This document shows, piece by piece, positions 6,204-60,997 of a stretch of 64,000 bases of DNA (the first letter of the stretch is position 1; each line of letters begins with the position of its first letter). Both the position numbers and the translations under genes were made by a program. The notes below the pieces were generated by a model, which was not told the DNA's origin, made no database searches, and was given only the letters and a program-made list of their open reading frames with translations. The DNA lies in the NCBI GenBank assembly GCA_965222225.1, contig CBDCTK010000002.1, positions 4,704,001 to 4,768,000 of the forward strand, read 5' to 3'. This DNA comes from Candidatus Poribacteria bacterium. Lineage in GTDB: Bacteria > Poribacteria > WGA-4E > JAJDTR01.

Positions 6204-6414
6204 GCTGATTTGAGTCATCTACCATCAGGGCAATCGCATCTAACTTTGCGGCATAGGGGCATCGAAAACGAGAGAACGAGATACGTGAAAATGCCAAATC
6301 TAGGCGTGGAAAGGGTGAGATTGAATTAAATTAAAGAGATATAGAGAAGGGAAATCAGGGATTTAATGATTGAAGATTGTTGCGATAAACCAACCGTAGG
6401 AGATCGAGCGAACG

Positions 6415-6443
6415 ATCAACTGAGTGGATGGCGAAGGCGATAG
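6415..6443 (-). repeat. Degenerate copy of the 35-bp REP-inserted element
   Basis: Reverse complement ctatcgccttcgccatccactcagttgat matches 24/29 nt of CTATCGCACTCGCTATCCACTCGCTTGAT; GTAGGAG at 6396 and a short partial copy (atcgagcgaa, 6403-6412) lie just before it. Confidence 0.65.
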
Positions 6444-21828: not shown

Positions 21829-21849
21829 GGTGGGCAGTGCCCACCCTAC
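21829..21849 (-). repeat. GTAG-type REP palindrome, uninterrupted
   Basis: GGTGGGCA-g-TGCCCACC followed by CTAC (GTAG on the minus strand). Confidence 0.8.
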
Positions 21850-36112: not shown

Positions 36113-37773
36113 TCAATCAACGTGAATCTCCCCTGACAAAAGTTTCGGCAGCAGTGCCTCTCGAATTTGGGAAAGAGTGTGTGATTGATGAATGTTTTCG
36201 ATAATTCTCCCAATGAGTGGTCGTATTAAATCGCTGTATTTTTGAGCGATTTCAAGTTGGGGCAGCACGAATTCATACTTTGACATGTCTCTCCAATTGG
36301 TTCGTGGCATTCTTGTACCCGTGGAATGAGCGTCAGTATAAGCAACGAATTCGTCACAGGACACAATCCCCAAAACAACATCGAACCATTCTGATTTAAT
36401 CGGCTGGACAACTAGAATGTCGGTTGAGCAAACCCCATCGGTCGGCGCAACGCCGACCTTGTGAAAATAAGGTCGAAGTTTCCCAAAGAGGATTTCACCC
36501 TTTCTGAATCGAGATTTATTGCTGCCGATTCCGTCGGCAGTTTGCCATTCAGAGAGAGCTATACTCCGCTTGACATATGCTCTAATCCGATATAAACGTC
36601 GCTTGAGTCGATTTGGTTAACGTTTGCACTACGTCGAACATTTTGTGCAATTTCTCCGAGTGTTCCAACCTCCCACCCCTCCGGAATCTTCCCCAACGGC
36701 GAATCTTGAAAAGCAGAAGGGAATATGGTGGCGGTTTCCGCGTCCATGCCAACGGGCTCCCGCCCCTCCATCTTTGCCCGCACGGGATCTAAATCCACAA
36801 ACCACGACTTGAAGATTGCCTTTGCCATCGCCTCCAGCGTCTCGTTCATCTGCCGATTAAGTTCGATCTTGTCGTCAAGTGAGCCTAGGATGTTGGCAAT
36901 CCGGCGTTGCTCAGGAAGAGGTGGTAATGCAACAAGAAAAGATTCAATGTGCGCTTTGGTAAGCGCTTTTCTTGTCCCTCCAGAATCGTGACCTAGCACG
37001 TAGGCTTTAACCCGCGGAGCACTCAAGTATTTTTGAAGGAAAGTGCTATTTAACCTATCAGAAGTTCGTATAACGGCAACATGTTGATTCACTCTCGCTG
37101 GTAGGGTCCATTTTGGAACAACGCAGCAACGAGCAACTGAATCTCCTGTGATGTTCAAAAGCACATCATCTTCTTGTATATCTACCCGCCGTAATTTATA
37201 TGCTGCAGATTCATCAATGTGGGCTAATCCATCTCTACTGAATTCATGATCGTAGACGTTTTGGCTACGGATCAAACTCACTCCTTCCGATTTATAGACG
37301 TTCTTCCCGCCTCTAGGCGTCGCGCCAGTGCTTATAAATGACGTTACGTCCGCTAAACGAACAACCTCCCAACCGGTAGGCGGCGCTCCTAGGGGTAGTG
37401 ATTTTAACAATAGCTCATTTATTTTGGCACTTTGATTCTGGGTATTTTTTGAATTCGTGCATTCACCTGCAGTCTTCGCTTGGCGTATTACCTCATATTC
37501 CTCAGCAATCACGTGCTTGAACCCATCTGATAGCACATGCCAATCTAACACATCAACCCGAATTGGAAGGTCGGATTCCTCGAATGCCTCTTTCAACTGA
37601 CGCATGCGCCTTAGGCTGAACGGCTCACTACCGACAACTGCAAGATCTAGGTCTGAATAATCCTTTGCTGTCCATGTCATCCGTGATCCATAGGCGCGAA
37701 CCTCGCATTCGGGGGCATGTTCCGTCAGTATGCGTTGAACTGTTTCAAGATATTTGGGATTAAGGTCAATCAT
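36113..37773 (-). pseudogene. hsdS: Type I specificity subunit with an N-terminal nucleotidyltransferase (MNT) domain; single frameshift at ~36570
   Basis: YGSR...SDLDLAV (MNT); TRD1; PPLPEQRRIANILGSLDDKIELN; IPEGWEV; after the shift KRSIALSEW...GKLRPYFHKV...LLPKLLSGEI. Confidence 0.88.
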
Positions 37774-39380
37774 TGTGTGCTTTTATGCCCGAACATTCTC
37801 AGACTATGCCCAATTGCCTCGTCCTGTCGTCTTGCCTCTGCCATCTGATCCGCCAGTCGTTCCGTCAAGAGGGCTATTTTCTCCTCAAACGGCTCGTCAT
37901 CGTCCTCCTGAGCCTCGGCGCCGACGTAACGTCCGGGGGTCAACACATTTCCGTGCTCGTGTATCTCTTCCAAGCTGGTGCTCTTGCAGAAACCCGGGAT
38001 GTCCGAATATTCACCCGCTCCCTCGTCGCTGCGCCAAGCGTGATAGGTGCTGGCAATGCGGGTTACGTCTTCTTCACTGAGTTCCCGGTGCACACGGTCA
38101 ATCATGGCGCCGAGTTTCCGGGCGTCAATGAACAGCGTTTCCTTCCTCCGCTTTCGAAAACGAGAATCCTCTTTATTTCGAGCGAGAAACCAAAGGCACA
38201 CGGGTATCTGCGTCGAATAGAACAGTTGCCCCGGCATCGCGACCATGCAATCGACCAAGTCGGCTTCAATGATATTCTTGCGGATTTCGCCCTCGCTGGT
38301 AGTGTTGGAACTCATCGAACCGTTTGCCAGCACGAATCCGGCGATGCCATCGGGCGCGAGGTGATGGATGAAGTGTTGTACCCACGCAAAGTTGGCGTTT
38401 CCTGTTGGAGGCACCCCGTAAACCCAGCGCCTGTCCTCACGCAGTCGCTCGCCTCCCCAGTCGCTGCTATTGAACGGCGGATTGGCGAGGATGTAATCAA
38501 CTTTCAGGTCGGGATGAAGTTCGCGGTGAAAACTATCGGCGTGCTCAACCCCAAGATTGGCGTCAATGCCGCGAATGGCGAGGTTCATCTGCGCCAGTTG
38601 CCAAGTGGTCGGGTTGGACTCCTGTCCGAAGATTGAGATATCGTCGCGTCCTCCGCCGTGCGCTTCAACAAAGGCTTCACTTTGGACGAACATGCCGCCC
38701 GACCCACAGCACGGGTCGTGCACTCGTCCTTTGTAGGGCGCAAGCATCTCCACCAGCACCCCCACCACGCAGCGTGGCGTGTAGAACTGGCCGCCTCTCT
38801 TGCCTTCTGCGCTGGCAAATTGTGAGAGAAAGTATTCGTAAACCCTACCCAAGATGTCCTTCGATCGATTCTCCTCCTCTCCCAAACCGATTGTGCCAAT
38901 CAGGTCAACTAGCTCGCCAAAGCGACGTTTGTCAAGCATCGGGCGGGCGAAGTTCTTTGGCAGAACACCTTTAAGACGAGGGTTCTCTCCTTCAATGGCA
39001 CCCATGGCTTTGTCAACTAGCGTGCCTATTTCCGGTGTTTTGGCGCGGGCTTGCAGATAGGACCAGCGTGCTTCTGTCGGGACGTAGAAGATGTTTTCCG
39101 CAAGGTATTCATCTCGGTCTTCCACAAACTCGTAACGAAAGGATTCTTCTTCAAGATAATATTCACTCTCAGAATTAGCGGATTGTTTAAGTAGAAAAGC
39201 GTGTCGTTCCTCAAAACGGTCCGAGATGTACTTGAGGAAAATCAACCCCAATACGACGTGTTTGTATTCCGCGGCATCAAGATTGTTGCGGAGCTTGTCG
39301 GCGGCTTGCCACAAGGTGGCTTCAAAACCGAGCGTCGCCCCGTTTCCGTTTGGTTTTGACTTTCTCTTGTTTCTTGCCAT
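37770..39380 (-). CDS. hsdM: Type I R-M methyltransferase subunit M
   Basis: [37 protein letters not shown]. Confidence 0.97.
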
Positions 39381-39523: not shown

Positions 39524-39600
39524 TAATCGGTGGCAAAGCCATTTTGGTCATTTGTAGAAAGTTTCTTCATGTTTTCATTGTTGGCTGCTACATACCTATG

Positions 39601-39738
39601 GGATCCCTATCGCACTCGCTATCCACTCGCTTGAGCGCTGCTGGCGCTTTCAAAGGCTGGTAGGATTTCTATCGCGCTCATTATTCATTCGCTTGATCGC
39701 AGGGGATCTCTATCGCAGTCATTATTCATTCCTTTGAT
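39601..39738 (+). repeat. Three copies of the 35-bp element (39601-39635, 39663-39697, 39704-39738) inside two REP-like hairpins
   Basis: ggatccctatcgcactcgctatccactcgcttgag / ggatttctatcgcgctcattattcattcgcttgat / ggatctctatcgcagtcattattcattcctttgat. Confidence 0.88.
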
Positions 39739-39865
39739 CGCACCCTACAAACTATGTCATCGTCCGCGGCGGTTAGAAACCAGCAATCTTTACGCTTCCA
39801 TTGCCATATTTCCTCACATAATGTCACATAATGTCACAATTTTTTAATTTATCTTATCGCGCTAA

Positions 39866-40752
39866 GATCCTGTTTGAAAAAGAAGAAAGTTGTCTGAAGG
39901 GTTGATGATTACGTTTACTCATTGGAGCAGTTCATTCTGAACCAATGAAAGGAGTAAACATCAACCGCACGAGTTATCCCAGTGATTTGACCGATACACA
40001 GTGGGAGAAACTGTTACCATTTCTGCCAACACCTCAACCCTTAGGCAGACCTCTCAAGTGGGAGATGTGTTTAATCATCAACGCCATCTTTTATGTCGTC
40101 AAGTCCGGTTGTCAGTGGCGAATGCTACCCCATGATATGCCACCGTGGCAAACCGTCTACTACCGTTTCAGAAAGTGGAAAGCCGACGATACATGGCTCT
40201 TGATTCATCAGGCACTTCACGAACAAACACGTTGCGATGCTGGCAAAGAACCATCACCGACAGCAGCTATCATCGACAGCCAATCCGTTAAGACGACGGA
40301 ATTAGCGGCGACTAGAGGATTTGATGGTCACAAGAGAGTCAAAGGACGCAAACGACATCTAGTAACTGATACGATAGGTGTTCCATTGATAGTCAAAGTC
40401 ACTGACGCCAATGTCAGTGACAATCAGATAGCTATTGAATTACTAACAGAAGTGTTTAGCTGGTACATAACAATTCAGTTGGTGTGTGCCGATGCTGCCT
40501 ATCGCGGAGAATTAGAAGACTGGTTATATCTAGCTCATCAGTGTCAACTGGAGATTGCATCTACGCTAGGGCAGCAGGGGTTTGAAGTTGTCCCGTTACG
40601 ATGGATTGTTGAACGCACATTTTCTTGGCTTGGCTGGTTTCGTCCATTGACTTTGGATTATGAACGCTATCCTAAGACTGCTCAGACCATGGTGTACATC
40701 GCTTCCATTTACTTGATGCGAAACCGAGTCAAATGACTTTTCAAACAGGCTC
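39866..40752 (+). mobile_element. IS5-family insertion sequence (IS1031-like)
   Basis: Terminal IRs GATCCTGTTTGAAAA and TTTTCAAACAGGCTC (14/15 match), TAA/TTA flanks, one transposase ORF. Confidence 0.9.
39945..40736 (+). CDS. IS5-family DDE transposase
   Basis: YPSDLTDTQW, GCQWRMLP, IIDSQSVK, KGRKRH, ADAAY, RWIVERTFSW. Confidence 0.95.
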   Translation: MKGVNINRTSYPSDLTDTQWEKLLPFLPTPQPLGRPLKWEMCLIINAIFYVVKSGCQWRMLPHDMPPWQTVYYRFRKWKADDTWLLIHQALHEQTRCDAGKEPSPTAAIIDSQSVKTTELAATRGFDGHKRVKGRKRHLVTDTIGVPLIVKVTDANVSDNQIAIELLTEVFSWYITIQLVCADAAYRGELEDWLYLAHQCQLEIASTLGQQGFEVVPLRWIVERTFSWLGWFRPLTLDYERYPKTAQTMVYIASIYLMRNRVK

Positions 40753-40781
40753 TTAACAAAATAATCGAGAAATGATATAAT
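40753..40781 (+). promoter_or_regulatory. Putative sigma-70 promoter for the aldolase gene, abutting the IS end
   Basis: TTAACA-N17-TATAAT with TGn extension; the -35 includes the TTA target triplet. Confidence 0.55.
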
Positions 40782-40917
40782 GCCTTGCACACCTGAAAAT
40801 ATACATCGGAGGAGGTTTTCTGTCAACGATATTCGCTGTCGGATAGTTTGTGTCCTTTTGCGAAAACCATCTTTGGTTTTCAGGAAATTCCGAAATTCAA
40901 CTTAGGAGACCACTGAT

Positions 40918-43752: not shown

Positions 43753-44517
43753 TTAAATCGTCCAGTATTTCCAGAGGTTCTCAGGAACTTCGTACCGTAT
43801 CCTCTCCTTCTCTTGATATGACCACCGGGCAAAAAGCCCGAATCGTGGAATATCGTGAACATTTGCGGATCCGGTGTGGCAGAGGAAACAGTGCCAAAAA
43901 ATAACATCGCCCGATTTGGCGATGAACTCACGAGGCGGCTCCGGCGATTGGTCGGAGAAGATTTCCCAGCCCCAACCTTCAGTATCTCGGAAGCTGCCGT
44001 CAATGTGGGTTGGATGCTCCAAGAAATAGGTGTGTGTTGTCAGATGGCTCTTTGGCCAATAGGTGAACGCCCCGCCACCCGGTTGGACATCGTACATATA
44101 CGTCGTTGCTCCGAGCATAAAACCGCCGCTCCATCCGTTCGGTCCATATCCGTCAATATGGCCGATGGTCGGCATCTGCCACGGTTCTTTTTCCTTTCTG
44201 GGCCACTGAGCGAGCACCTGTCCGCCGCCGCCGTTGAACATGCCACCGCCAATTTGATCCACAACGGCGCGAACTTGCGGGAGTTGACCGAAAACCTGTG
44301 ACTCTGGTTCAATCTTCAATCCATCGGCAACATACTGATCCGGCCAACCACTTGGGTCGGATAACTCGGAATTAAGATGATCCCAAATCTGGTTGCGCCA
44401 ACTTTGGACAACATCGCTTTCGACGAAATTTTCCAGAATCAAGTAACCGTTGGTCTTAAAGTAATCAATCTGTTCGGGTGTAAGTATTTCGTTATTGGTC
44501 GGCGTTCGAGCAGTCAT
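43753..44517 (-). CDS. PhyH-family dioxygenase
   Basis: FKTNGYL, GHIDGY, WPKSH, GDVIFWHCFLCHTGS. Confidence 0.88.
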   Translation of the reverse strand: MTARTPTNNEILTPEQIDYFKTNGYLILENFVESDVVQSWRNQIWDHLNSELSDPSGWPDQYVADGLKIEPESQVFGQLPQVRAVVDQIGGGMFNGGGGQVLAQWPRKEKEPWQMPTIGHIDGYGPNGWSGGFMLGATTYMYDVQPGGGAFTYWPKSHLTTHTYFLEHPTHIDGSFRDTEGWGWEIFSDQSPEPPREFIAKSGDVIFWHCFLCHTGSANVHDIPRFGLFARWSYQEKERIRYEVPENLWKYWTI

Positions 44518-44578
44518 GATGATTCACCCGTGCTCCCATTCAAAACGGCAATGAAGTTTGACTCAACTTCCTTCTCTT

Positions 44579-44911
44579 TCAAAGTTCGAAAACCCGCTCC
44601 ATAGTTGCCCACCATTCGTCCGGTTTAGCTTCCGGTACCCGTTCCTGAAAATCTCGCATGAGCACATCCCATTCACGGCAGCGTGGATGCAATTCCAAGT
44701 GACGTGGAAAGTCGTGTGCGGGGTCGAAATCATCAACGGTTTCTATCGCCATGAACAGCCGGTTCCCGAGCAGATAGATATCCATCCTCGTGATTCCAAC
44801 CTCCCGCAGACTATTTAGCACTTCGGGCCAGACATTCCTATGATATGTCTTGTATTGCTCAATGACCTGCGGATCGTCTTTCAGATTCAAGGTTAAACCA
44901 AAACGTCGCAT
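44579..44911 (-). CDS. L-rhamnose mutarotase family; start ATG 44911
   Basis: YKTYHRNVWPEV...GNRLFM...WATMERVFEL; GGAG RBS. Confidence 0.88.
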   Translation of the reverse strand: MRRFGLTLNLKDDPQVIEQYKTYHRNVWPEVLNSLREVGITRMDIYLLGNRLFMAIETVDDFDPAHDFPRHLELHPRCREWDVLMRDFQERVPEAKPDEWWATMERVFEL

Positions 44912-44926
44912 AGATTCTCCTTCCTT

Positions 44927-44949
44927 GTAGGGTCGGATTGGCAATCGAC
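44927..44949 (+). repeat. GTAG-type REP
   Basis: GTAG-GGTCGGATTG-G-CAATC-GAC imperfect palindrome. Confidence 0.65.
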
Positions 44950-45003
44950 AGATCGCCCATACGAAGAGACCGATACTAGCCATTGCCCTGCACACCAACC
45001 TGG

Positions 45004-45057
45004 GTAGGCGGGGATCAAGCAAGCGAATAGCACGTCGATAGAAATCCCCTTGCCCCG
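45004..45057. repeat. REP interrupted by a minus-strand copy of the element (45014-45047, 34 nt)
   Basis: GTAGGCGGGG [atcaagcaagcgaatagcacgtcgatagaaatcc] CCTTGCCCCG; excision gives CGGGGC-ctt-GCCCCG. Confidence 0.82.
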
Positions 45058-45112
45058 GATTGGAAAGATTTGATTGACGCTAGTAGTGGACTGCAAATAT
45101 AGGGAAATAGAA

Positions 45113-45844
45113 TTAGTTAGGACCGTCTAGCATCACACGCAAGAGCGGCAATTTGTCCCTGTGTTCGTTTACAATCGGGTTGTCGGCGGTGTTGTCCTCG
45201 GGATGCGGGGTTGGGTTGCTCCATCCCTGATAGTGTCCACCCCAGATGTGACGCCGCGTCCCGCCAGTCCCGCGCCGGGAGCAATGCCAAACAGCGGTGT
45301 CAAAGATAACCGCTGATCCGGGCGACATAACCACTTCCTCTTCGCCTTCCCATACTGCCTCTCCATCGCCCTTTGCGTCAACTGAGTCGTTCAACCGCCG
45401 TGGAAGCACAATGAGAGGACCGATTTCGCGGTCGGATCCGTCTACATAGATACCGCAAAGGATCCGCTCGGGATTCTCGCGTTGCAAACCGGTTGGCGGA
45501 ATCTCCCAGGCGTAGTGGACGTGCCATGAAGTCAAGATAGGTTGAGTAGGGGCGTTTCCGAAGACTGCCGCGCCAGTGTGCGCAAGTCGAACATCGTCTT
45601 GAAGAACTTCCTCCATCGCATCGACTAGAATGGATTTCACGAAGAAAGGCGCCATTTCCGGACCTAACTCCAACAGCGGGTGAAATCCTATTGTGGACTG
45701 TTCCGCAGAGAACCCTCCCCTTTTGTCGCACAGTCCCTTAAAAATCGTGCGAATCTGGTCGCACTCCTTTTCATCGCATACTGACTCAATCAAACAATAG
45801 CCGCGTTCTGCCACCTCGCGAGCCTTTGACTTTAGGTCAATCAT
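45113..45844 (-). CDS. PhyH-like dioxygenase, paralog B; start ATG 45844
   Basis: ERGYCLIE, SWHVHY, PGSAVIFDTAVWHCS. Confidence 0.8.
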   Translation of the reverse strand: MIDLKSKAREVAERGYCLIESVCDEKECDQIRTIFKGLCDKRGGFSAEQSTIGFHPLLELGPEMAPFFVKSILVDAMEEVLQDDVRLAHTGAAVFGNAPTQPILTSWHVHYAWEIPPTGLQRENPERILCGIYVDGSDREIGPLIVLPRRLNDSVDAKGDGEAVWEGEEEVVMSPGSAVIFDTAVWHCSRRGTGGTRRHIWGGHYQGWSNPTPHPEDNTADNPIVNEHRDKLPLLRVMLDGPN

Positions 45845-45948
45845 CCGTACCACCTTTCTAACGAAGTGTGTAGACGCAAATAGCGATGATTCACCCCTAC
45901 CTGCGCCCGAAATTAATAACAGGTCTTGAGACAAGGATTTATGGCGGA

Positions 45949-46680
45949 TTACTCAGGACCGTGCAACAGCGAGCGAAGGAGCGGCAACTCGTTCCTGAAT
46001 CCGGTTAGGGTTGGATTGTCGGAGGTGTTGTCCTCGGGATGGGGCGTCGGATTATTCCATCCCTGATAATGCCCACCCCAGATGCGGCGTATGCCTTTAG
46101 CGCTCCCACGACGCGAGCAGTGCCATACAGCGGTGTCAAAGATTACTGCTGCCCCGGGAGGCACTTCCACCACGTCTTGCCCCTCCCAATCAACCGACAC
46201 ATCGTCTTTCCCGTCAACTGATTCGTTCAACTGCCGCGGAAGTACAATGAGGGGACCGACATCAAGGCTGGAACCGTCCACATAGATGTTACAAAGGATC
46301 CGCTCCGAATTCTCGCGCTGCAACCCTCCGTCGGGAATGTCCCAAGCGTAGTGGACATGCCAGTTAGTCAAAATCGGGTTAGTATGCGCGTTGTTGAAAA
46401 CGGCTGCGCCGCTGTGCGAGAGCCGAACATCGTCCTGAAGCACCTCTTCCATCGCGTCCACGAGAACCGATTTCGCGAAATAGGGCGACATCTCGGGCCC
46501 CCATTCGAGGAGCGGATGAAAGCCGACGGATGGCTGTTCGGCAGAAAGTCCCCCCTTTTTCACACACAGTGCGTCGAAGATAGCACGCATCCCCTCGCAT
46601 TCTTGGTCGTCGTAAGCCGATTCGATAACACAGTAGCCGTGGTCATGAACCTCTTGTGCCTTCGATTTTAGATTAATCAT
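45949..46680 (-). CDS. PhyH-like dioxygenase, paralog A; start ATG 46680
   Basis: DHGYCVIE, NWHVHY, PGAAVIFDTAVWHCS; collinear with the neighbouring paralog. Confidence 0.8.
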   Translation of the reverse strand: MINLKSKAQEVHDHGYCVIESAYDDQECEGMRAIFDALCVKKGGLSAEQPSVGFHPLLEWGPEMSPYFAKSVLVDAMEEVLQDDVRLSHSGAAVFNNAHTNPILTNWHVHYAWDIPDGGLQRENSERILCNIYVDGSSLDVGPLIVLPRQLNESVDGKDDVSVDWEGQDVVEVPPGAAVIFDTAVWHCSRRGSAKGIRRIWGGHYQGWNNPTPHPEDNTSDNPTLTGFRNELPLLRSLLHGPE

Positions 46681-46944
46681 ATATGCCACCTTTCTGGCGA
46701 TATTGTGGTCAAGATTCTGCCACAAAACCTATGTGGATGTCCATCAGTTTCGACTCGGATCGAAAAATACCATGCTACGTACACTAACCCAATAACTTGT
46801 ACGAAAATCTATTTGGATTCGGTAATGCTTCTCACCCCAGCGGAGTGCCATGTCTGTACTATGGAGATGTCTTTCCCTCCGTTCCAGAGGAGCGGAATGT
46901 CTGTGTCTTGGAAGAAAGACAAGTGCGATTACGGTGCAATACCC

Positions 46945-49098
46945 CTACAACTCAATGATTAGAACTTCGTGAATCTGCGAAGTCTGAAGCGTCACGGTAT
47001 CGCCTGACACGGAGACCGTGGAATCCGCACTTTCGCCATTAGCCTTCGAAAACGGTCTCTTGACCGTGACTTTCGCCGTGTAGCCAAAAGTCTCTTCCAT
47101 CAGCGGTGGCAACACCATTCGTCCCTGCCCCTGTCTTCCCATGGCGGAAGTTGTCGTGCCCCAGAACGCAATGAAATGCACCAGTAGACGTTGCTGATTC
47201 TTGTCCTCTGCCACGACGGTTTCAACATTCAGCGGTGCCTGAATGAGTACATCCGGCTCTGGATTCAGATATCGCACCAAGTTTCGAATCGCATCACGAT
47301 GCTCCGGCATTCGATACGACTCGCCCCAAGCAGCATCCACGCAACAGGCGACAAAGGCGGCTTTGCCTTTCCCGTATTCGTTGACGGTTATCGCCGGACC
47401 AATCACGCGACCGGCGGACATGTGGTCACGCCAAGGATTATCGGCACCTTCAACGGAACGGTGAGCGGCAAGCACTTCGCCGTAACCCTGCGCCGAACTC
47501 GTCTCCACCTCGACAATCGGTCCCCATGTCAAAATAGGGTGATCGGTTGGCAGACCGTCTACAAGTGATGCGGATTCGCCATTACACAGGCTTGATGGGA
47601 AACGCAGATAGTTGTCTCGGTGGTCGGTTAAAGCCTTGACGGATCGTATCCCGAGAAGTTCGGCAAGGTTACAAGTGTCGCCCAGTTCGCCGCGAGAGTC
47701 GCACATCCCCGTCATCGCAGTTGCAATCAGATTTCCCCCTTCCGCCACATAGTCTTGGAATAGACCAACCTCCCGCTCCGTCAAGATGGCGGCATTGGGA
47801 AGAAACACCACGGGAAACCGGCGTAGTCGCTCCGCCGAGACATTTTCGTCCATGATCATGCCCATGGGGATGTGTGACTGAAGAAAGGCTTTGTGTGCCC
47901 CCACGAACGCGGAAAAATACTTGGAACCATCCTCGCGGCCATACCAATCGCGACTGCGGCAGGAATAATAGAGACCTACCTCCGGTAATGCGGGATAACC
48001 AAAATACGCGTGCTTGCGTCGTCCTTCTCCGAAGGCTTCACCGATTCGTTCGAAGGCGACCGGCGCCAAGCAACCGTCATAGTCGGCTTTATCTACGATA
48101 GTGCATTGACACCCGTGGGAAAGATAGGTCAAGACCTCCCACGTCATGTCCGCGGCTGGCCTTACAGTGTAGTCATGGTAGTTGTAAACGAAGCGTGAGG
48201 TGACCCCTTGCACAGGGCAGCCCGGCTTGACTGCAAGCATGAACAATGAAAGCAGACTGGGATTTGTGTTGCCGAACGCCCACGGCAATCCTTCGGCGGT
48301 CACGAAATCACCGCTCTGCGCGTGCTGCACCGGCTGTTCACCCACCTCCCACGAGAAGGGAGGATAACCGTGGTAATTGAAATCGACGCTCAACTCAGGG
48401 TTGTGACTCTTGACGTAAGCATCCAATTCCCGGCAGAAATTTGCGTTTGAGTTGCAACGAAATTCGAGCATCTTGTCCCAAGCGTCGTCCCAGGTGACGC
48501 CATTGGGCATCTCAATACCGTAAGCCTCTCTGAATTGTCCCCGGCAGCACTCGCACCAGCACCCGATGGGTGGGCCGAAGCCGAAATCAAGCATATCGAA
48601 ATGGAAACCGACAATCTCGTATTCCATCATCTCCGCGGCGAACCGCTTGCGCTCTTCCAGATATCCCGAGTTATAGCAGAGGCGGCTTGGAATATCCTGC
48701 CCCTTACTGTCCTTCATACGCCATTCGGGGTGAGCGCGCCACGAAGAGCCATCGTACTGAATCTGACAATACGCCACCACCGCAATCCCGTGCTCCTTGG
48801 CTTCGTCGATACACTCTCGAAGTAAATCTCGATCCCCGAGGTTCGGCGCTTTTCTTCCCATCTTGGAGTTGTAATACGCGAAGTCATGGTCTTTCATGAA
48901 AACGATGATATATTCGGCATTGGCTCTCCTCACATTTTCAATGATTTCCCGACCGGTAATGCCAGCCATATAGACATCATCGCCATCATTTCCGCCAGTG
49001 GGCCCGTACTCCAAGCCAACCAACATCCGCCGGTACCACGGCTGTTCACCCATTTCGGCTGATGATTCGGTTACATTGTCTGTGGTGCTCACGGTCAA
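46945..49098 (-). CDS. Putative glycoside hydrolase (GHL6-like TIM barrel plus beta-galactosidase trimerisation domain)
   Basis: DLLRECIDEAKEHGI, HPEWR, LCYNSGY, GFHFD; VVFLPNAAILT...YVAEGGNLIA. Confidence 0.72.
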   Translation of the reverse strand: MTVSTTDNVTESSAEMGEQPWYRRMLVGLEYGPTGGNDGDDVYMAGITGREIIENVRRANAEYIIVFMKDHDFAYYNSKMGRKAPNLGDRDLLRECIDEAKEHGIAVVAYCQIQYDGSSWRAHPEWRMKDSKGQDIPSRLCYNSGYLEERKRFAAEMMEYEIVGFHFDMLDFGFGPPIGCWCECCRGQFREAYGIEMPNGVTWDDAWDKMLEFRCNSNANFCRELDAYVKSHNPELSVDFNYHGYPPFSWEVGEQPVQHAQSGDFVTAEGLPWAFGNTNPSLLSLFMLAVKPGCPVQGVTSRFVYNYHDYTVRPAADMTWEVLTYLSHGCQCTIVDKADYDGCLAPVAFERIGEAFGEGRRKHAYFGYPALPEVGLYYSCRSRDWYGREDGSKYFSAFVGAHKAFLQSHIPMGMIMDENVSAERLRRFPVVFLPNAAILTEREVGLFQDYVAEGGNLIATAMTGMCDSRGELGDTCNLAELLGIRSVKALTDHRDNYLRFPSSLCNGESASLVDGLPTDHPILTWGPIVEVETSSAQGYGEVLAAHRSVEGADNPWRDHMSAGRVIGPAITVNEYGKGKAAFVACCVDAAWGESYRMPEHRDAIRNLVRYLNPEPDVLIQAPLNVETVVAEDKNQQRLLVHFIAFWGTTTSAMGRQGQGRMVLPPLMEETFGYTAKVTVKRPFSKANGESADSTVSVSGDTVTLQTSQIHEVLIIEL

Positions 49099-49168
49099 TT
49101 CCTCCTCTTGCGATTAACTCCATACGTACAGCAGTGTGCTGTGGTGGGTTCTAGTGTGACAAGATGCT

Positions 49169-49894
49169 CTAACATTTGCGAGCCGCTGGTGGTCTTGCTG
49201 GCGTTCGGATGTGGATTTTGTTGATCTTGTCGGTTGAAAGACGACCTCTCAACTTCCGTTTCACCGTGTATTTGTCGAGGTGTTCCAGTTGGATCAACAT
49301 ACATTGAGTTCGAGACGGGAGTTGCCATAGGCGCTCAAAATCGGACTCAGTCTTTCTGTTTGTGTGGCCCCCCCGCGGATCTTCCAAAATGATGTATCCG
49401 GATTCGTCATAGCCAACGACCAGCCATGGTGTTGACTCCAATAGAACCAGCGACCACCACCCTACGTCGATGAACGCTTTCAATACCTCTATGTCGCAAT
49501 GGGTTATAACAGCGACGTTGTAGTTCTTTGGAATAAGTGCGGTATCAGGTTGTTCTGTGTTTTGTTGCTTCCGCAGGCCGCCGCTCAGGCGAGGGTACTC
49601 TGGTACTAGGACAGCTTCAAGTTCATTCAAACTCTTCAACTCACGTAGCGGCTTCGTCTTGAAAAGCCGATCTAGCCACATGCGCTCGCGTACGTCCGCG
49701 TAGACTCTCTTGGCTTGAACTGATGTCGGCGACGCGTTCGCAGCCGTTGTAGAAGCTGACAAAGACCCTGCAGTTTCCGACGACGATGGCAATTCTGCAA
49801 TATAAAACTTCTGGTTTTGCGGCGATGGCGCACAACCAAGCACGATCAAACACAACAGCACAGCTAAAGCGATTCGCGAAAAATGTCTCTGCAT
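49169..49894 (-). CDS. Hypothetical lipoprotein; start ATG 49894
   Basis: Lipobox VLGC; LVVGYD...IILEDP C39-like segment. Confidence 0.65.
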   Translation of the reverse strand: MQRHFSRIALAVLLCLIVLGCAPSPQNQKFYIAELPSSSETAGSLSASTTAANASPTSVQAKRVYADVRERMWLDRLFKTKPLRELKSLNELEAVLVPEYPRLSGGLRKQQNTEQPDTALIPKNYNVAVITHCDIEVLKAFIDVGWWSLVLLESTPWLVVGYDESGYIILEDPRGGHTNRKTESDFERLWQLPSRTQCMLIQLEHLDKYTVKRKLRGRLSTDKINKIHIRTPARPPAARKC

Positions 49895-49986
49895 GATTCT
49901 CTCCTTTTCAGTCACGCTAGTCAAGGGGAATTTGATGGTGTCCGATATTATCATTTTAATTGGTTAGGCAGTCAACCGGAAAATAC

Positions 49987-52479
49987 TCATTGACGCTGCT
50001 GACGTGATACATTGACGAGTCGCACGTCATCCACCCAAGCGCTGCCAGTTGTTCCCTCCTTGTGGAACCTTATCTGTGCATGTGAGGTACCTGGCGGGGC
50101 AATGCTTCCACAAGTCGCAAATTGCCAGCCGCTGGAGGAAGCTGTTTCGATTACTGACGCGGTTTCCACAATATTACCCTCGTCATCCAGGTATTCAATT
50201 GCGGCTTGTATTCGTTCAGTCGTGTTAATTTCGGTGAACTTGACATAGAACTCTAATCTACACGTTACACCGGCTGGTATGTCGACCAGAAGTGAATACT
50301 GTCTACGTTCTACTACGCGAAGCGAATAGTCTCCGCTCCGTTTCTCTTGTTTATCCGGGTGACTTATTCTAGGCCATGCTCCCTCCTCCCGCCAGTCGGC
50401 TAGGTCCCTACCGTCTCCAATTTCACATCCGGATTCCAGCAGGATCCCCCGCTCCCTAAGGTTCAAGCGTTTGCGATTCAGATCCGCTCTTTCGGCTTTG
50501 AGCGCTGCACTCAGCCGCTCTGTTCGCTGGCGGGCAAGGTCTTGCAGCTCCCTGAAACGTCTACTGAGTTCTCTGCCGACCCCGGAGTCCCCAATCACAA
50601 TCAATTCTGCTGTATTCAATTCTGGAAGATAGAGAGTTTTTGTGTTGCTGTCGCCATTAGTCGAGAGTTCAAGTTCTCCAATCCGGTTACCATCCGCGGC
50701 TAACGCTGCTTCATGATGTCCCCACGGCGGCAAATGAAGTTCAAGCCGAACATCCTTCAGTGGTGTATTTGAAAACCCTTCTACGTCAGAGGTGAAGTCA
50801 TGATTGACTAGGATAAGTATCACCGTTCCATCCGCACATAAGAGCGTCTGTTGCCACAATGTATCAGAGTTGGTTGCCGTGTCCACGCTGTGTTGCGAAA
50901 CTATATTATCACACGGATACGCACCCAAGAGCAACGGGATTAGCGTCTGAACAGTTAGATTAATCTGCCCTATCGCTTCGAGTAGCGTTGGATTCGCCTC
51001 GACACCGTGGTCTCCCGTCCCTCCCGGTTTTGAATCATCATAAGTATAGTAACATAGCCCCTTACCGCCGGAAGCCACGCAGTAATACGCCATCATCTTT
51101 TCTTCCTGAGGTGAGGGGAAGCGTGGTACGCCGATACTCTTTTCCCACGCCGCATAGATGAGTGTATTGAATGCTCCCGGCATGGCTGCCCAGCGCAAGG
51201 CGTTCACCGCATCGTAAACGGCAATGGGTTGCTTGGCGCCTTGACCCGCATAATCCCCGCTCGATGGGATATCTGCTCCTCTGGCGTGGATAAAGTAATT
51301 TGCGGGGTGCCCCCAACCGTCAAGTTGAAGCCAGCCGAGCGCCGCCGCGTCATCACTTAACTTGCCTCTCATGAACTCAATGACATCAGTCTGAGCCATG
51401 CAGCCCAGGCGTTTAGATTCAGGGAAGGATTTGAGATGAACACCCTCCCAGATGTCTATTTCGTCTCGCACGTACCAATGTTTGTCATCTGCGTCGAGTA
51501 ACATGATATCGTTGCGTCTAGCCAGCTCTCGTCCCTCTGCTGAATTTCGAATGGCGCTATCTTTGGGCCAGATGAAGATGAGATCGGTGTTGAAGTGGTA
51601 TGCCTTTAACGAGCGGTAGAAGTCATACATGCGTTCAACGGCTGTCGCCCCCTTGGAACTCCAGCCGTAGACCCCAACCGGAAAGAAGTCCTTCTTTGCC
51701 CTGACCATGTCCACAATCTCGACGCCCTGTTTTGTGATGAGCCGCAACAGATGATGTGACCCCTCTTTGAGCGGCGTGTCTAGGGCAACTGTCAGAATTC
51801 CTAAATCATGCCAGAAATCTGGTGATGCAAACCTACACTGAGCAGTGATATCAATTTCGTCGAGGTATACGCTGTCGAAAGTTAAATCCTCGGGCGTCAG
51901 CTTCCTGGCGAAGATAACCATTTGCTCGCAGTTCGCTCCAAAACCTACATATGCTATCCGAACCTTCGGTTCTTGTGGCTTAACAACTGCAGTACATAAG
52001 TTGCCTCGATTATCGGCGATTCTGACTTCAACAGGATGACTTGGAGAAAGTCTTGTCCTAATCAGGAGGAATCCCAACCCGCCAGGGGCAACCGAAGTCG
52101 GTCTAATTTTGTACCAGATTGGTTCGCCGGCATCCATCAACGTTCGTGTTGGCGCTGATGGTTTGGTTAGGTGTTCTCCATGCCAAATACTAGTCGCCTT
52201 GAGGTCGCCGTGTGTCGTTAATCTATTGACTACCGACACCTCGTCAAGGAGGATGTCCGTTACCTCCATAGGCGTTTTCCCGGTATTGCGGATGACAATT
52301 AGATAGTGGCCGCCGGGAGGCCATCTCCACTCCCTCAATTCGGGCATCGTATCCGGAATGAATTGCGCTGTCACCACGGAGATATCCTTACTCCTTCCTG
52401 GATCGTATGCATTTTTCATACCGATGTTGGCAGCTCCCAGAATGACAATCGCGGCAATCGCTACTGAAATTTGAACCAT
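49987..52479 (-). CDS. Large secreted hypothetical protein, glycoside-hydrolase-like with a C-terminal CBM-like domain
   Basis: N-terminal hydrophobic segment; FFPVGVY, WYVRDE, GGKGLCYY; C-terminal SGDYSL...AWVDDVRL. Confidence 0.62.
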   Translation of the reverse strand: MVQISVAIAAIVILGAANIGMKNAYDPGRSKDISVVTAQFIPDTMPELREWRWPPGGHYLIVIRNTGKTPMEVTDILLDEVSVVNRLTTHGDLKATSIWHGEHLTKPSAPTRTLMDAGEPIWYKIRPTSVAPGGLGFLLIRTRLSPSHPVEVRIADNRGNLCTAVVKPQEPKVRIAYVGFGANCEQMVIFARKLTPEDLTFDSVYLDEIDITAQCRFASPDFWHDLGILTVALDTPLKEGSHHLLRLITKQGVEIVDMVRAKKDFFPVGVYGWSSKGATAVERMYDFYRSLKAYHFNTDLIFIWPKDSAIRNSAEGRELARRNDIMLLDADDKHWYVRDEIDIWEGVHLKSFPESKRLGCMAQTDVIEFMRGKLSDDAAALGWLQLDGWGHPANYFIHARGADIPSSGDYAGQGAKQPIAVYDAVNALRWAAMPGAFNTLIYAAWEKSIGVPRFPSPQEEKMMAYYCVASGGKGLCYYTYDDSKPGGTGDHGVEANPTLLEAIGQINLTVQTLIPLLLGAYPCDNIVSQHSVDTATNSDTLWQQTLLCADGTVILILVNHDFTSDVEGFSNTPLKDVRLELHLPPWGHHEAALAADGNRIGELELSTNGDSNTKTLYLPELNTAELIVIGDSGVGRELSRRFRELQDLARQRTERLSAALKAERADLNRKRLNLRERGILLESGCEIGDGRDLADWREEGAWPRISHPDKQEKRSGDYSLRVVERRQYSLLVDIPAGVTCRLEFYVKFTEINTTERIQAAIEYLDDEGNIVETASVIETASSSGWQFATCGSIAPPGTSHAQIRFHKEGTTGSAWVDDVRLVNVSRQQRQ

Positions 52480-52491
52480 TTTCGCGCGTAC

Positions 52492-53409
52492 TTAGCGCTC
52501 CAAACGCCACTGAGCTTCGTCAACGTACAATGCCGTTGCGTGTTTGTTGGCATCAAATGCTTGTTCCATTTCGGAAAGATCTTCAAACCAACCGACGAGA
52601 TGTACCGCCCCAAAACTCTCACCGGCTTCCACTCGCGCGCCGCCAATCTCTTGAATCATGCACACGTAATCCCGTTGATGGCACCACGCTTCATACACTT
52701 CGGACGATTCCAGCGTCATCCCCGCCAACCAAAGTCCGGTACGTAACTGATACGCTCGGATGAACCGCTGTGGCAAATTGCCTACCCTCCTCTGATACAG
52801 GAAGCGAGCGTCGGGTGGGAAGTTCTCAAGAAAGGTCCGCGATGGGATGCAGCCGTGATAGCTCAGATAAATCTGCTCGAAAGTGTCCCCGCTATTGTGT
52901 CTGATGTGTCCCGGCATGTCGATCCGCAGCATGAGGGCGTTTACTGTGTTGACGCTGGTCACCCTGTCGTAGGCGAGGAACCAGCGAACGCCATCGGGAA
53001 AAACGAGCCACTGCTCCCAGCGAGACCCCGGTTTGTAGGGCGGGCGGGCAATCATCCAAGTAAATTCTTGCCGCACAGCGATAAAGCCGTTGCCTTCAAC
53101 GATCTCGGTAGGCAACTGCTTCGCTTGCGTGCATATTTGTGGCAACTCCACATAGCGCTTCGGAATCTGACCATGGACAAGATTGCCTCCGTGATAACGA
53201 AGCGCTGAGGGCGTCGAATCATCATCATGACCCGGTTCCAGCAAAAAATCGACAATGCACAGCCCAAACCCTTGGTCACACGCACCGGTGGATTTGTCTA
53301 CGAAACTACTCCCCTTTACACCACTGACGTAGCCCTCGGTTTGCACAGACGCATAGTAGCTATCCGTTTCAACACGCAATAATGAACCGTCTCGTTGTAC
53401 TGTTGCCAT
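52492..53409 (-). CDS. Hypothetical protein
   Basis: 305-aa ORF in operon spacing; no recognisable motif. Confidence 0.7.
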   Translation of the reverse strand: MATVQRDGSLLRVETDSYYASVQTEGYVSGVKGSSFVDKSTGACDQGFGLCIVDFLLEPGHDDDSTPSALRYHGGNLVHGQIPKRYVELPQICTQAKQLPTEIVEGNGFIAVRQEFTWMIARPPYKPGSRWEQWLVFPDGVRWFLAYDRVTSVNTVNALMLRIDMPGHIRHNSGDTFEQIYLSYHGCIPSRTFLENFPPDARFLYQRRVGNLPQRFIRAYQLRTGLWLAGMTLESSEVYEAWCHQRDYVCMIQEIGGARVEAGESFGAVHLVGWFEDLSEMEQAFDANKHATALYVDEAQWRLER

Positions 53410-53413
53410 TATC

Positions 53414-54307
53414 TCAATCCGTCACTGAATCGTCTGCCGGCAATGTTACGTTGTAATCCCGATCTTTGAGCCACCCCCAAGTCACAAATTGCTTGCTCGC
53501 GGGAGAAACCGACAACGCTGAGGGGGACCAGTCGGGGCTGTAATCGCTCTCGGCATCTCTTGTTAGCCTTTGAAGATTGCCACCATCAGCATCCATCATG
53601 TAGACGTCAAATTTTGCCTTATTTCTTCTAGATGAGAAGGCAATGCGTTTGCCGCTGGGTGACCACGACGGGCTAGAGTCAAATCCGTCACTGTTTGTTA
53701 GGTTCTGAGGATTGTCGCCATCCGCGTCCATCAAGTAGATTTCCCAGTTCCCGCGATCTCTATCAGCCCCAAAGGCAATGCGTTCAGCGCTAGGTGACCA
53801 CGATGCGCAACAGTCAAACGCGATATGTCGGGTTAACCTCTGAGGATTGCCGCCATCTGCGTCCATCACATAGATTTCATTGGTCCATCTCTTAGGTCCA
53901 TCTCTATTGGATGCGAACGCAATGTGTTCACCGTTAGGAGACCATGAAGGAGAATCATCCGTTGATGGATTCTTCGTTAAGTTTCGAAGATTCCGCCCCT
54001 TAGCATTCATCACGGAGATTTCGAAGTTCTCATCTCTATCGGACGTGAAGCCAATGCGCCCGCAATCAGGGGACCACACCGGTTTCCAATCCAGCGCCGA
54101 ATTTCTGGTTAGATTGCGAGGATCACTACCGTCCGCATTCATTACGTAAATCTCGCGGTTTCCATCTCTCATGGACGTGAACGCAATTTGCGCACGCGCC
54201 TGAACACCAGCCATGAACAGGACCATGCCCAAGATGAGAACCCTTGGTAGAATGAAATATCTCAGGTTATATCGCTGTCGCATCCTCCGTCCTCCGTTGC
54301 CGCCCAC
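53414..54307 (-). CDS. Secreted TolB-like (PD40/WD40-like) beta-propeller protein
   Basis: Repeats IAFxSxRDG..EIYVMxADG..PxWSP; tail VSPASKQFVTWGWLK. Confidence 0.9.
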   Translation of the reverse strand: MGGNGGRRMRQRYNLRYFILPRVLILGMVLFMAGVQARAQIAFTSMRDGNREIYVMNADGSDPRNLTRNSALDWKPVWSPDCGRIGFTSDRDENFEISVMNAKGRNLRNLTKNPSTDDSPSWSPNGEHIAFASNRDGPKRWTNEIYVMDADGGNPQRLTRHIAFDCCASWSPSAERIAFGADRDRGNWEIYLMDADGDNPQNLTNSDGFDSSPSWSPSGKRIAFSSRRNKAKFDVYMMDADGGNLQRLTRDAESDYSPDWSPSALSVSPASKQFVTWGWLKDRDYNVTLPADDSVTD

Positions 54308-54343
54308 AAGCCGCGGCCTTCTCTTTGGACTATTGCGATTGTC

Positions 54344-55348: not shown

Positions 55349-55388
55349 CTTTACCCTAATAATCTTTCAGCGCCAAAAAACCCGCGAC

Positions 55389-56966: not shown

Positions 56967-57117
56967 CGGGAGGGCTCACATCGGACAGCCTAGAGGAGGT
57001 TCGACGATTAGGAACACTTGACACCCGATTCAGTGCGCCACGGTATTCCGAAACGGGTACTCATACCATTTCTCTATATTTACAGTGCATTAATAGCGTC
57101 AATCAAGTCTCTCCGAA

Positions 57118-57172
57118 GCGGGGCAAGAAATCTCTATCGCACTCGCTGTCCACTCGCTTGATTCCCGCCTAC
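57118..57172. repeat. REP interrupted by the 35-bp element (57128-57162)
   Basis: GCGGGGCAAG [aaatctctatcgcactcgctgtccactcgcttgat] TCCCGC-CTAC. Confidence 0.85.
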
Positions 57173-57282
57173 GGGGTTTGGTGTGCAGGATAATGGTTGG
57201 TATCGATCTTTTCACAATAGTATAATTTTGGACATCAAATGCCACATTATTCAATCGAAATGGTATCACAGGGGAGACGCCC

Positions 57283-58314: not shown

Positions 58315-58416
58315 CTGTTCTCCATTTCAATCACAGAGACTCCGATTGAAGGCATGTGCGCGCGGGGTGAGAAAAACCGGTATAGAACTTTAGAGGCTTG
58401 GCACGCGATGATCCCC

Positions 58417-59604: not shown

Positions 59605-59860
59605 AAATGGACTTCCTTTCACTTACTCGGTTCCGCTGTCTCTTTTCTTCCACAAGTCACAAGTGTTGAATAATGTCAACAACCAGCATCAAAATGGGAT
59701 TTCTTAATCGCACCGTCAGTTACGGTACAGTTTGAGTGGACGTACAACGGCCATCCTTTAACCGTTTAATTCACTTAAATAACCCAAGTTGCCACTTACA
59801 AGATTTTAGACATGCACCGCCGTTTTTAATTGAGAACAGTTCATTAATTGCGGAGATTTC

Positions 59861-59950
59861 GTAGCGCAAGGGATCTCTATCGCGCCCGTTATCCACTCGC
59901 TTGATCTGTCAGTTTGCGCATCACAAACACAATCTAATAGACTGTGCTAC
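59861..59950. repeat. Inverted REP pair; the first REP is interrupted by the 35-bp element (59871-59905)
   Basis: GTAG-CGCAAG [ggatctctatcgcgcccgttatccactcgcttgat] CTGTCAGTTTGCGC ... CACAATCTA-a-TAGACTGTG-CTAC. Confidence 0.88.
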
Positions 59951-60015
59951 AAAGGTGGCAACTTGGGTTAAATATATCCCCTCCACATTTTGTCGCACAT
60001 GCGGTAGACCGCTAT

Positions 60016-60831: not shown

Positions 60832-60997
60832 GTAATTCTGAGATGATTCAACATCTACGGCAATTCCGATGGACTTTGGTGAGATTAAACAATCGAATGA
60901 ATTTTTGCCTACTCGTTTATTGGAATGGGGTAACAGCAGAACGCGGAACTAGATAGACTGTTGACTACGGAATTTTCGCCGGATAGAGGTATCCCAT

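Follow-up and report, generated by a model that had tools for sequence, protein, structure and literature searches.

A 36-nucleotide, gene-less mobile element that parasitizes hairpin repeats in a Candidatus Poribacteria genome

The DNA analyzed here (the window) is a stretch of 64,000 nucleotides, positions 4,704,001 to 4,768,000 on the forward strand of contig CBDCTK010000002.1, from the Candidatus Poribacteria bacterium assembly GCA_965222225.1. This source assembly, referred to below as G000, totals 5.70 Mb in two contigs (main contig, C2) with a GC content of 0.50, and the genome is described as sponge-symbiont-like. The window holds seven copies of a very short repeat, and we use E as the name of the family to which they belong. 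An initial annotation had reported seven copies of a ~35-nt sequence inserted into several different repetitive extragenic palindromes (REPs), and these copies are real: an nhmmer profile built from the five strong window copies gives seven matches at exactly those seven places, five of them strong (E-values of 1.6e-8 to 1.5e-6) and two weak (copies 4 and 7 below). Moreover, the consensus searched at ≤3 mismatches finds exactly five plus-strand copies, at 39601, 39663, 39704, 57128 and 59871, and none in shuffled sequences. The copies and their hosts are as follows, in window coordinates.

39600..39635, plus strand: E copy 1, a position-0 G followed by the 35-nt core ending TTGAG, at the 5' foot of a REP1-type hairpin (CTACATACCTAT / GCGCTGCTGGCGC); empty form ACCTGTCG-CCCYGCTGGGGC
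39655..39748, plus strand: host REP of the CTAC type (GGTGCGCAGTGCGCACCCTAC family), which E copies 2 and 3 divide in three
39662..39697, plus strand: E copy 2, a position-0 A followed by the 35-nt core, in the 5' arm of the CTAC-type REP; junction GGCTGGT-A[E]CGCAG, with G in the empty form; context AGGCTGGT / CGCAG..., 304 empty matches
39703..39738, plus strand: E copy 3, at the loop/3'-arm boundary of the REP that also holds copy 2; junction GCGCAG-G[E]CGCACCCTAC, with TG in the empty form; context GTGCGCAG / CGCACCCT, 371 empty matches
45014..45048, minus strand: E copy 4, diverged, inside GTAGGCGGGG[E']CCTTGCCCCG; weak nhmmer match at 45014-45047 (E-value 8.7); host type GCGGGGCAAG-ATG-CCCCGCCTAC, of which there are empty copies
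57055..57269, plus strand: repeat A, a ~210-nt dispersed repeat carrying E copy 5 and itself a present/absent insertion at this locus
57127..57162, plus strand: E copy 5, within the hairpin GCGGGGCAAG[E]TCCCGCCTAC of repeat A
59775..59974, plus strand: MITE-B, a ~165-nt repeat of the miniature inverted-repeat transposable element (MITE) kind with terminal inverted repeats AACCCAAGTTGC...GCAACTTGGGTT, into which E copy 6 is inserted
59870..59905, plus strand: E copy 6, within MITE-B's central hairpin, in its 5' arm; GCGCAA-G[E]CTGTCAGTTTGCGC, with A in the empty form
6407..6443, minus strand: E copy 7, with a degenerate 5' end; nhmmer match at 6415-6443, profile positions 7-35 (E-value 0.48)
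21829..21849, plus strand: empty REP GGTGGGCAGTGCCCACCCTAC, of a host type that carries E elsewhere in G000 and an uninterrupted relative of the host REP at 39655..39748

Overall, the claim that deletion of the insert restores a hairpin is upheld by real empty copies of each host type. Specifically, the empty form is GCGCAA-A-CTGTCAGTTTGCGC for the host of the copy at 59871 (six paralogues in G000), GCGGGGCAAGATGCCCCGCCTAC for the hosts at 57128 and 45014, GGTGCGCAGTGCGCACCCTAC for the host shared by the copies at 39663 and 39704, and ACCTGTCGCCCCGCTGGGGC for the host at 39601. Uninterrupted hairpins had also been described at 21829, 59928 and 62951, and all three are present: the first is of a type whose context GTGGGCAG / CCCACCCT has 4 filled copies against 39 TG and 2 CG empty matches, the second consists of a hairpin plus CTAC within the 165-nt MITE, and the third is a hairpin followed by CTAC. 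The same empty sites agree with the reported lack of target duplication. They do not agree with the assumption that the host halves stay intact around the element, as E substitutes for 0-3 host bases.

Searched across the 5.7 Mb of G000, the profile gives 735 matches at E-values ≤0.01, of which 575 are near full length (1309 matches at E-values ≤10). Position-wise counts in this work use the 546 indel-free copies, the other 29 near-full-length copies having been dropped. The consensus is 36 nt long and reads [G/A]GGATYTCTATCGC-xy-TC-nn-TATYC-n'n'-TC-x'y'-TTGAT. Information content is high across positions 0-36 and drops to background immediately outside, so that the edges are sharp and E can be regarded as a discrete unit; the base directly 3' of it is C in 89% of copies, mostly within CGC or CCC. 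The corresponding IUPAC pattern has 936 matches in G000 at ≤2 mismatches, compared to none for the reversed control. The flank pairs are unique for 350 of the 546 copies, and the mutually unrelated intergenic contexts occupied by E number in the hundreds. The two ends of E share only the palindrome GATC, and a model of sticky-end insertion between GATC sites was rejected on reading the junctions by eye, since they do not fit it. As the unit is merely 36 nt, the absence of an open reading frame (ORF) from the insert holds, and crude ORF calls bear out its intergenic location, with 631 of the 732 main-contig copies lying outside ORFs on a contig that is ~18% non-coding. Proximity to a GTAG/CTAC tetranucleotide proved to be a feature of the window copies that extends to a part of the family, with CTAC ≤40 nt downstream in 182 of 398 isolated copies genome-wide.

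The evidence that E is inserted comes from sites at which it is missing. When E was removed in silico and the joined flanks were searched in the genome, a junction-spanning match was obtained for 335 of the 546 copies, and 185 copies had a well-anchored empty paralogous site, representing 122 different 8+8-nt junction contexts. MITE-B illustrates the pattern: its six G000 paralogues without E read GCGCAA-A-CTGTCAG, compared to GCGCAA-G[35 nt]-CTGTCAG for the window copy. This repeat has two internal hairpins, and each of the ten genomes in the genus carries it in many copies. When contigs from four public runs were mapped on 44000-61000, all four showed a 36-nt skip at 59869-59906 with an 'A' between; these skips probably represent empty MITE-B paralogues and not polymorphism at the locus, because the matching sides measure just 20-30 nt.

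An orthologous comparison is provided by the first REP downstream of a gene resembling the REP-associated tyrosine transposases (RAYTs). This REP is empty in G002, G009 and G004 (CACCTGT-CG-CCCCTCTGGGGC) and filled in G005 (CACCTGT-GG[E]-CCCTCTCTGGGGC), with a near-identical further flank in G002 and G005 and a downstream gene common to all four genomes. It is also filled in G000 and in one G001 copy, and empty in the second G001 copy and in all orthologues of other genera. Furthermore, E inserts into itself: excision restores an outer E in 50 of the 546 copies (≤3 mismatches at fixed positions), and the breakpoints of this nesting cluster after outer-E positions 10/11, 15-17 and 34. Set against the empty sites, both paralogous and orthologous, E is thereby shown to be an insertion.

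Some copies are nonetheless carried passively in larger repeats. The copy at 57128 came within the ~210-nt repeat A, which together with E copy 5 occupies this locus in G000 and G005, is absent there in seven congeners, and occurs elsewhere in G006 with an empty hairpin. In the spacer of the same locus, G007 carries a different insertion ~90 nt upstream that also contains an E copy. Recurrent composites exist as well, two junction contexts having 15 and 13 filled copies. Once inserted, many E copies spread on along with the repeats that host them.

With respect to target sites, the hosts of E fall into several repeat families, the REPs alone accounting for at least three; in the notation used here, bases between hyphens belong to the empty form and are missing from the filled form. 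Host REP 1, ACCTGT-CG-CCCCGCTGGGGC, flanks a RAYT gene in every genus examined. The CTAC-tagged host REPs include GGTGCGCAG-TG-CGCACCCTAC, GCGGGGCAAG-ATG-CCCCGCCTAC, GGAGA-T-CGCTCCTAC and GGGAATAACAA-T-CGTTATTCCC, among others. Further hosts are MITE-B, the ~210-nt repeat A, a CRISPR (clustered regularly interspaced short palindromic repeats) repeat, and E itself (TCTAT-CG-C and CGCAC-T-CG). The description of E as a parasite of REPs therefore captures its nature as a fixed-sequence, gene-less insert in unrelated hairpin repeats, but is too narrow in that a MITE stem, CRISPR repeats and E itself also serve as hosts. Across the 122 contexts the host bases replaced are CG (35), G (13), T (13), none (12), TG (8), C (7), TTG (7) and A (5), with the rest rarer; these bases may go missing on either side of E. 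Insertion takes place immediately 5' of a C(G/C)C arm, close to either the apex or the foot of the host hairpin, and the orientation of E is fixed relative to the host REPs.

Removal of 70 nested-looking contexts from the 122 left 52 for a test of hairpin hosts, and in 51 of these non-nested empty sites the junction lies inside a predicted hairpin (mean minimum free energy, MFE, −9.2 kcal/mol), against a control that is weak in that 445 of 600 random intergenic 60-mers are likewise enclosed (mean MFE −4.5). The junction falls ≤2 nt from the hairpin loop in 29 of 45 distinct 60-mers, compared to 35% expected for any position, and two groups of junctions can be distinguished, one where the 3' arm begins and the other in the 5' arm, a few bases short of the loop. 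Pairing between the flanks themselves shows a modest effect, with stems of ≥6 bp in 87 of 358 non-nested copies (24%) versus 14% for re-paired flanks, a test that foot-type insertions escape. The proposal that E targets hairpin structure rather than sequence is not demonstrated by these data, given the following C in 89% of copies, usually within CGC or CCC, and the near-loop position of only 29 of the 45 junctions. The core of the initial annotation, in which a fixed-sequence, non-autonomous element enters hairpins, is supported by the empty sites in 122 contexts, the orthologous filled/empty site, self-nesting and the 51 of 52 junctions within hairpins. Taken together, we conclude that E is a genuine mobile element of very small size that lacks a gene and parasitizes hairpin repeats; with ~700 to 900 copies of 36 nt, it ranks among the smallest mobile elements known.

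The CRISPR hosts belong to one array:

G000:C2:2705500-2707790 (= L133:9501-11791), outside the window: type I CRISPR array, beside cas3, cas7 and cas1 (NCBIfam)

The Cas7 of this array is Cas7/DevR-like, and the array repeat is 37 nt long (GTAGCAACCATTGCCGCGATGAAAAGCGGACTGAAAG). E breaks 4 of 12 recognizable repeats, entering after AAAAGCG or AAAAGG, and nested E copies lengthen the array by ~1.6 kb. Splitting of these four repeats may disable the corresponding units.

Within E, we find a hairpin that is maintained by covariation. Mutual information peaks at the column pairs 18-26 (1.08 bits), 15-29 (0.90), 19-25 (0.49) and 14-30 (0.47), with all remaining pairs at ≤0.16. Among 428 distinct sequences these four variable pairs are 80.5% Watson-Crick, compared to 41.6% after column shuffles (sd 1.1; maximum 44.5% in 500) and 12-31% when the partner is slid by one or two columns, and 151 different combinations of the four variable dinucleotides occur. 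An alternative model in which the symmetry of E is that of a direct repeat was rejected, the direct pairs 15-26 and 18-29 reaching 0.16 and 0.14 as opposed to 0.47-1.08 for the inverted pairs. Fixed pairs are found at 9-35, 10-34 and 11-33; 12-32 is a G.T, and 13-31, 16-28 and 17-27 are fixed mismatches, the last two of which would form a tandem G.A if the complementary strand is considered. The stems covary but the unpaired bases (TC/TC, the TATYC loop and the ends) do not vary, a pattern to be expected of a folded single strand that is recognized by a protein. Mismatches in the variable pairs are A.C in 244 cases and G.T in 21 on the consensus strand. This excess fits folding of the complementary strand, a hint only, as most of it belongs to one common state (AC...GC) that may be ancestral.

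The orientation of E is unrelated to genes, with 200 copies in the same and 225 in the opposite orientation to their neighbors, and its occurrence in convergent, divergent and tandem spacers shows nothing beyond what their lengths account for. It does follow the sign of local GC skew. The family forms 535 clusters, 398 of them single-copy and 137 multi-copy (115 in one orientation and 22 mixed). Scored in 100-kb windows, the 513 single-orientation clusters give counts of 152/75/86/200, corresponding to an odds ratio of 4.7 (p 6e-17), with the consensus strand on the G-rich strand. The bias persists in 216 isolated copies without CTAC within ≤40 nt (odds ratio 3.1, p 6e-5). This skew-linked orientation suggests that single-stranded DNA is involved. 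GC skew flips sign about eight times along C2, pointing to many inversions or assembly joins, and replichores cannot be drawn because of these many changes of sign.

Turning to distribution, at ≤2 mismatches the pattern has 614-1367 matches per genome in the nine congeners. A genus belonging to another family contributes four genomes with ~200 matches apiece, a sister genus has 3, and the 26 further genomes of the order that were searched have none; the reversed control gives 0 throughout. At ≤1 mismatch, 20 of 176 genomes of the phylum have a match: all 10 of genus g1, all 4 of g4, one of the 20 g6 genomes, with 18 copies, and five others holding 1-4 copies each. Among these 176 genomes, abundance of E is confined to two genera, and the lineages that bear it are g1, g4 and G066; in g4, E sits in the REP foot as it does in g1. 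An exact-pattern scan of viral contigs gave 0 matches. From these pattern counts, the patchy distribution suggests transfer or repeated loss.

As E has no gene of its own, we considered which enzyme of the host might move it. Five loci in G000 encode a Y1_Tnp domain (PF01797), and E adjoins three of them; no TnpB (PF07282) or IS110 transposase (PF02371) was found in this genome. Two of the Y1 proteins, RAYT-1 (157 aa, C2:3080258-3080728) and RAYT-3, were searched in 41 relatives. RAYT-1 is flanked in all genera by ACCTGTCGCCCCGCTGGGGC downstream and its complement upstream (loci L091-L120), often as tandem arrays of 2-4 units, a typical REPtron arrangement for which no report in Poribacteria turned up in literature searches on the phylum. 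A further RAYT-like Y1 ORF on the plus strand at G000:C2:3088793-3089350 has an in-frame TAG and is probably a pseudogene, with intact relatives in congeners.

In the mechanism we favor, E would move as, or into, single-stranded DNA at the replication fork, and would be mobilized in trans by a host-encoded enzyme, most likely a Y1 protein of the HUH class (RAYT or IS200-like) that serves the invaded REPs. This reading rests on the single-stranded hairpin substrate, the lack of target duplication, the strand bias, and a self-target that mimics the RAYT-REP target; specifically, the nested self-target CTAT^CG^C resembles the target CTGT^CG^C in the REP1 beside the RAYT gene. It is also consistent with the action of Y1 transposases on single-stranded hairpins at the lagging-strand template, as outlined in the part of PMC6006769 drawn on here. 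On balance, we regard the chances that a Y1 transposase moves E as roughly even.

Several observations weigh on the other side. When E alone was folded on both strands it showed no extra stability over shuffles (MFE −0.2 to −1.8 kcal/mol; z −0.97 to +1.2), so its pairing is visible through covariation only, a combination that fits a structure which either a protein recognizes or the host stem clamps. E carries no GTAG or CGTC tag, and a 36-nt unit with a single hairpin cannot supply the two end-hairpins of IS200/IS605 elements. Known Y1 transposition is precise and occurs 3' of a fixed tetra- or pentanucleotide, unlike the junctions of E, at which 0-3 nt are replaced. The presence of E beside RAYT genes is explained by its residence in the REPs that flank them, and even there it is optional, the first downstream REP being filled in three and empty in four of the seven closest RAYT-1 loci of the genus. 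RAYT-1 orthologues with 70-77% identity occur in genera without E, RAYT-1 is missing from 2 of the 4 E-bearing g4 genomes, and the RAYT-3 clade behaves alike; this distribution neither proves nor excludes a role for RAYT. Finally, part of the skew bias of E may be inherited from its host REPs, since E has a fixed orientation within REPs and empty REPs are more biased still: empty CTAC-type REPs (GGTGSGCAGTGCSCACCCTAC) on the main contig are oriented with GC skew at 67/24/27/91, an odds ratio of 9.4.

A tentative possibility, which we consider distinctly less probable than Y1-mediated mobilization, is that E represents a class of its own, namely a hairpin parasite that is moved by a dedicated, still unrecognized enzyme reading folded single-stranded DNA, that colonizes any stable hairpin exposing a ^C(G/C)C arm at the fork, be it a REP, a MITE, a CRISPR repeat or another E copy, and that has been passed horizontally between two sponge-associated genera. 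If this is true, the movement of sub-50-nt repeats becomes directly testable in dozens of complete related genomes with 200-1400 copies each. A mobile E could also be moved by an enzyme other than Y1/RAYT that is restricted to E-bearing lineages, either a recombinase or nuclease that recognizes folded single strands in the manner of integron attC sites, or an unrecognized mobility protein. The abundance of E in two genera plus one further genome of the 176, set against the far wider range of the tested RAYT clades, argues for such an enzyme, as do the imprecise junctions that differ from Y1 chemistry and the invariant ends and unpaired bases beside covarying stems. However, no candidate gene emerges from G000, the ORFs with E on both sides (78 of 4352) being heterogeneous and containing no recurrent gene family, and we view this explanation as unlikely. 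E may also be a recombinase scar, an alternative raised in the initial annotation.

Spread of E through an RNA copy and target-primed reverse transcription would account for the small target deletions without duplication, for the A.C over G.T excess, which corresponds to G.U wobbles on the complementary strand, and for the surplus of right-hand over left-hand partial copies (347 versus 102 at E-values ≤10). Against this route, most partial copies are outer halves of nested insertions, the A.C excess lies mostly in the AC...GC state and may be a founder effect, and orientation tracks GC skew, not neighboring genes. Moreover, G000 has a single weak RVT_1 match (E-value 6e-6), with no E nearby, and reverse transcription appears very improbable to us.

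Equally hard to sustain is a model in which E never moves by itself and is instead a module of mosaic repeats, resembling bacterial interspersed mosaic elements (BIMEs), that spreads by recombination or gene conversion and as a passenger. Composite contexts do recur, two flank pairs being found 14 and 15 times, respectively; the copy at 57128 came with its 210-nt repeat, and three E copies adjacent to an insertion sequence (IS) share one flank. Nevertheless, 122 different junction contexts have empty counterparts, REP1, the CTAC-type REPs, MITE-B and the CRISPR repeats share no sequence, the edges of E are always identical, and one orthologous REP differs by E alone. That E is kept for a cell function, as a protein-binding site or structured RNA motif, or arises from spacer-like off-target integration by Cas1-Cas2, can be largely dismissed, in that its strong covariation, its length of 35-36 nt against array spacers of ~35-38 nt by repeat spacing, and the preference of Cas1-Cas2 for palindromic off-target sites are outweighed by the nesting of copies in each other and their breakage of CRISPR repeats, the lack of a link to gene orientation or intergenic-region type, the absence of the repeat-length target duplication expected from spacer integration, and the recurrence of one fixed sequence hundreds of times, with 0 matches in an Rfam gathering search of the window.

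The genes neighboring E copies 1 to 3 are of separate interest. A transposase gene of the IS4/IS5 type (DUF4096 + DDE_Tnp_1, 263 aa) lies at 39945-40736, in the interval 39739-40800, and three of its six genomic copies share an upstream flank made up of the REP+E composite plus 124 nt. On the minus strand, 36559-39380 holds a type I restriction-modification HsdM gene (536 aa), whose best matches (92, 80, 78 and 74% identity) are all Candidatus Poribacteria metagenome-assembled genomes; the N-terminal part of the HsdS-like protein beside it matches nucleotidyltransferase domains (Polbeta, NTP_transf_2).

The common view is that mobile DNA requires two or more protein-binding ends and some 100 nt. 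E provides rich material, with hundreds of filled/empty pairs, a covarying hairpin that tells which bases a protein must read, and self-nesting that shows the target at single-base resolution, and gains of E can be dated in the ten genomes of the genus, several of which come in one to three contigs. Its hosts further demonstrate that even CRISPR repeats, like REPs and MITEs, are open to parasitism themselves. In practical terms, such elements swell intergenic regions, break short-read assemblies, and can pass for CRISPR or REP variants. No description of an E-like element was found in the literature searched on Poribacteria repeats and on REP, RAYT and CRISPR-repeat insertions, a coverage that excludes most subscription journals.

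In terms of known systems, E departs from several classes that its size or location might suggest. It has neither the terminal inverted repeats of ~15-30 bp nor the target-site duplication of a MITE. It does not behave as a CRISPR repeat, as 398 of the 535 clusters are single and the sole large cluster is the true array with its different 37-nt repeat. Gene-less derivatives of IS200/IS605 are known as PATEs (palindrome-associated transposable elements), and REP-targeting ISs are ~1-1.5 kb long with their own transposase. IS200/IS605 elements share with E the use of single-strand hairpin substrates, the lack of target duplication and a replication-strand bias, according to the portion of PMC6006769 available to us. 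Unlike E, with its single hairpin and variable left context, they need a hairpin at each end and precise 3' insertion at a fixed target, and G000 lacks a TnpB match. IS1397/ISKpn1 and IS110-family elements also target REPs, as cited in passages of PMC3116915 and PMC3733652, and thus resemble E in entering REP hairpins; they differ in being full-length elements with a transposase, of which the IS110 type is absent from G000.

REPs and REPINs, paired REPs in inverted orientation, come closer, as they and E are short, intergenic, high-copy imperfect palindromes kept by compensatory changes and oriented with replication, in a genome that has Y1 genes. Nevertheless, neither GTAG nor CGTC occurs on either strand of positions 0-36, and the adjoining GTAG/CTAC is that of the host REP. 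The RAYT-1 flank is ACCTGTCGCCCCGCTGGGGC, in which E is an optional insert, and unlike REPINs, E forms no inverted doublets, with 22 of 137 multi-copy clusters mixed and no dominant spacing. E inserts into REPs and is not itself a REP. A GTAG REP that does insert is GTAG-23 of Thermomicrobium roseum, found within palindromes CCGSSCC(n3,4)GGSSCGG that also exist in hundreds of empty copies (Di Nocera et al. 2013; PMC3733652, in part). As with E, a small repeat is nested in hairpin targets that are also found empty; in contrast, T. roseum has one target type and its insert is a GTAG REP, compared to the many targets of E, and the sections of PMC3733652 at hand do not report self-nesting or CRISPR hosts for GTAG-23. 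Together with the small dispersed repeats (SDRs) of Nostocaceae, these GTAG REPs within other palindromes are the closest precedents of E and contradict the initial suggestion of no described element of this size and behavior, at least as far as the accessible text of PMC3733652 goes.

To our knowledge, inserting repeats of 20-40 nt have been described once only, in filamentous cyanobacteria, and E would then be a second, independent case, in a phylum distant from cyanobacteria. The SDRs, 21-27 nt in size and the nearest of the known systems, are reportedly treated as SDR1-8 of Nostocaceae by Elhai et al. in 2008 (Genome Res 18:1484). E differs from them in its 36 nt, its phylum, and its REP, MITE and CRISPR-repeat hosts, and G000 is not rich in the highly iterated palindrome HIP1 (117 sites versus 86 expected). 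According to PMC4390886 (in the excerpt used), SDR5 enters HIP1 at a precise point, with GCG on one side and ATCGC on the other, and on the complementary strand the E junction likewise reads GCG^ATCAA. The distribution of SDRs is patchy and lineage-restricted, as is that of E, and SDR-like repeats were not found outside Nostocaceae among HIP1-rich cyanobacteria, going by the sections of PMC5861425 drawn on here. By description, not by sequence, the two are alike in being very small, gene-less and inserted in conserved or palindromic sequences, and in its length of tens of nucleotides, its dispersal, its insertion into conserved sequences and its nesting, E has the properties by which the SDRs are recognized.

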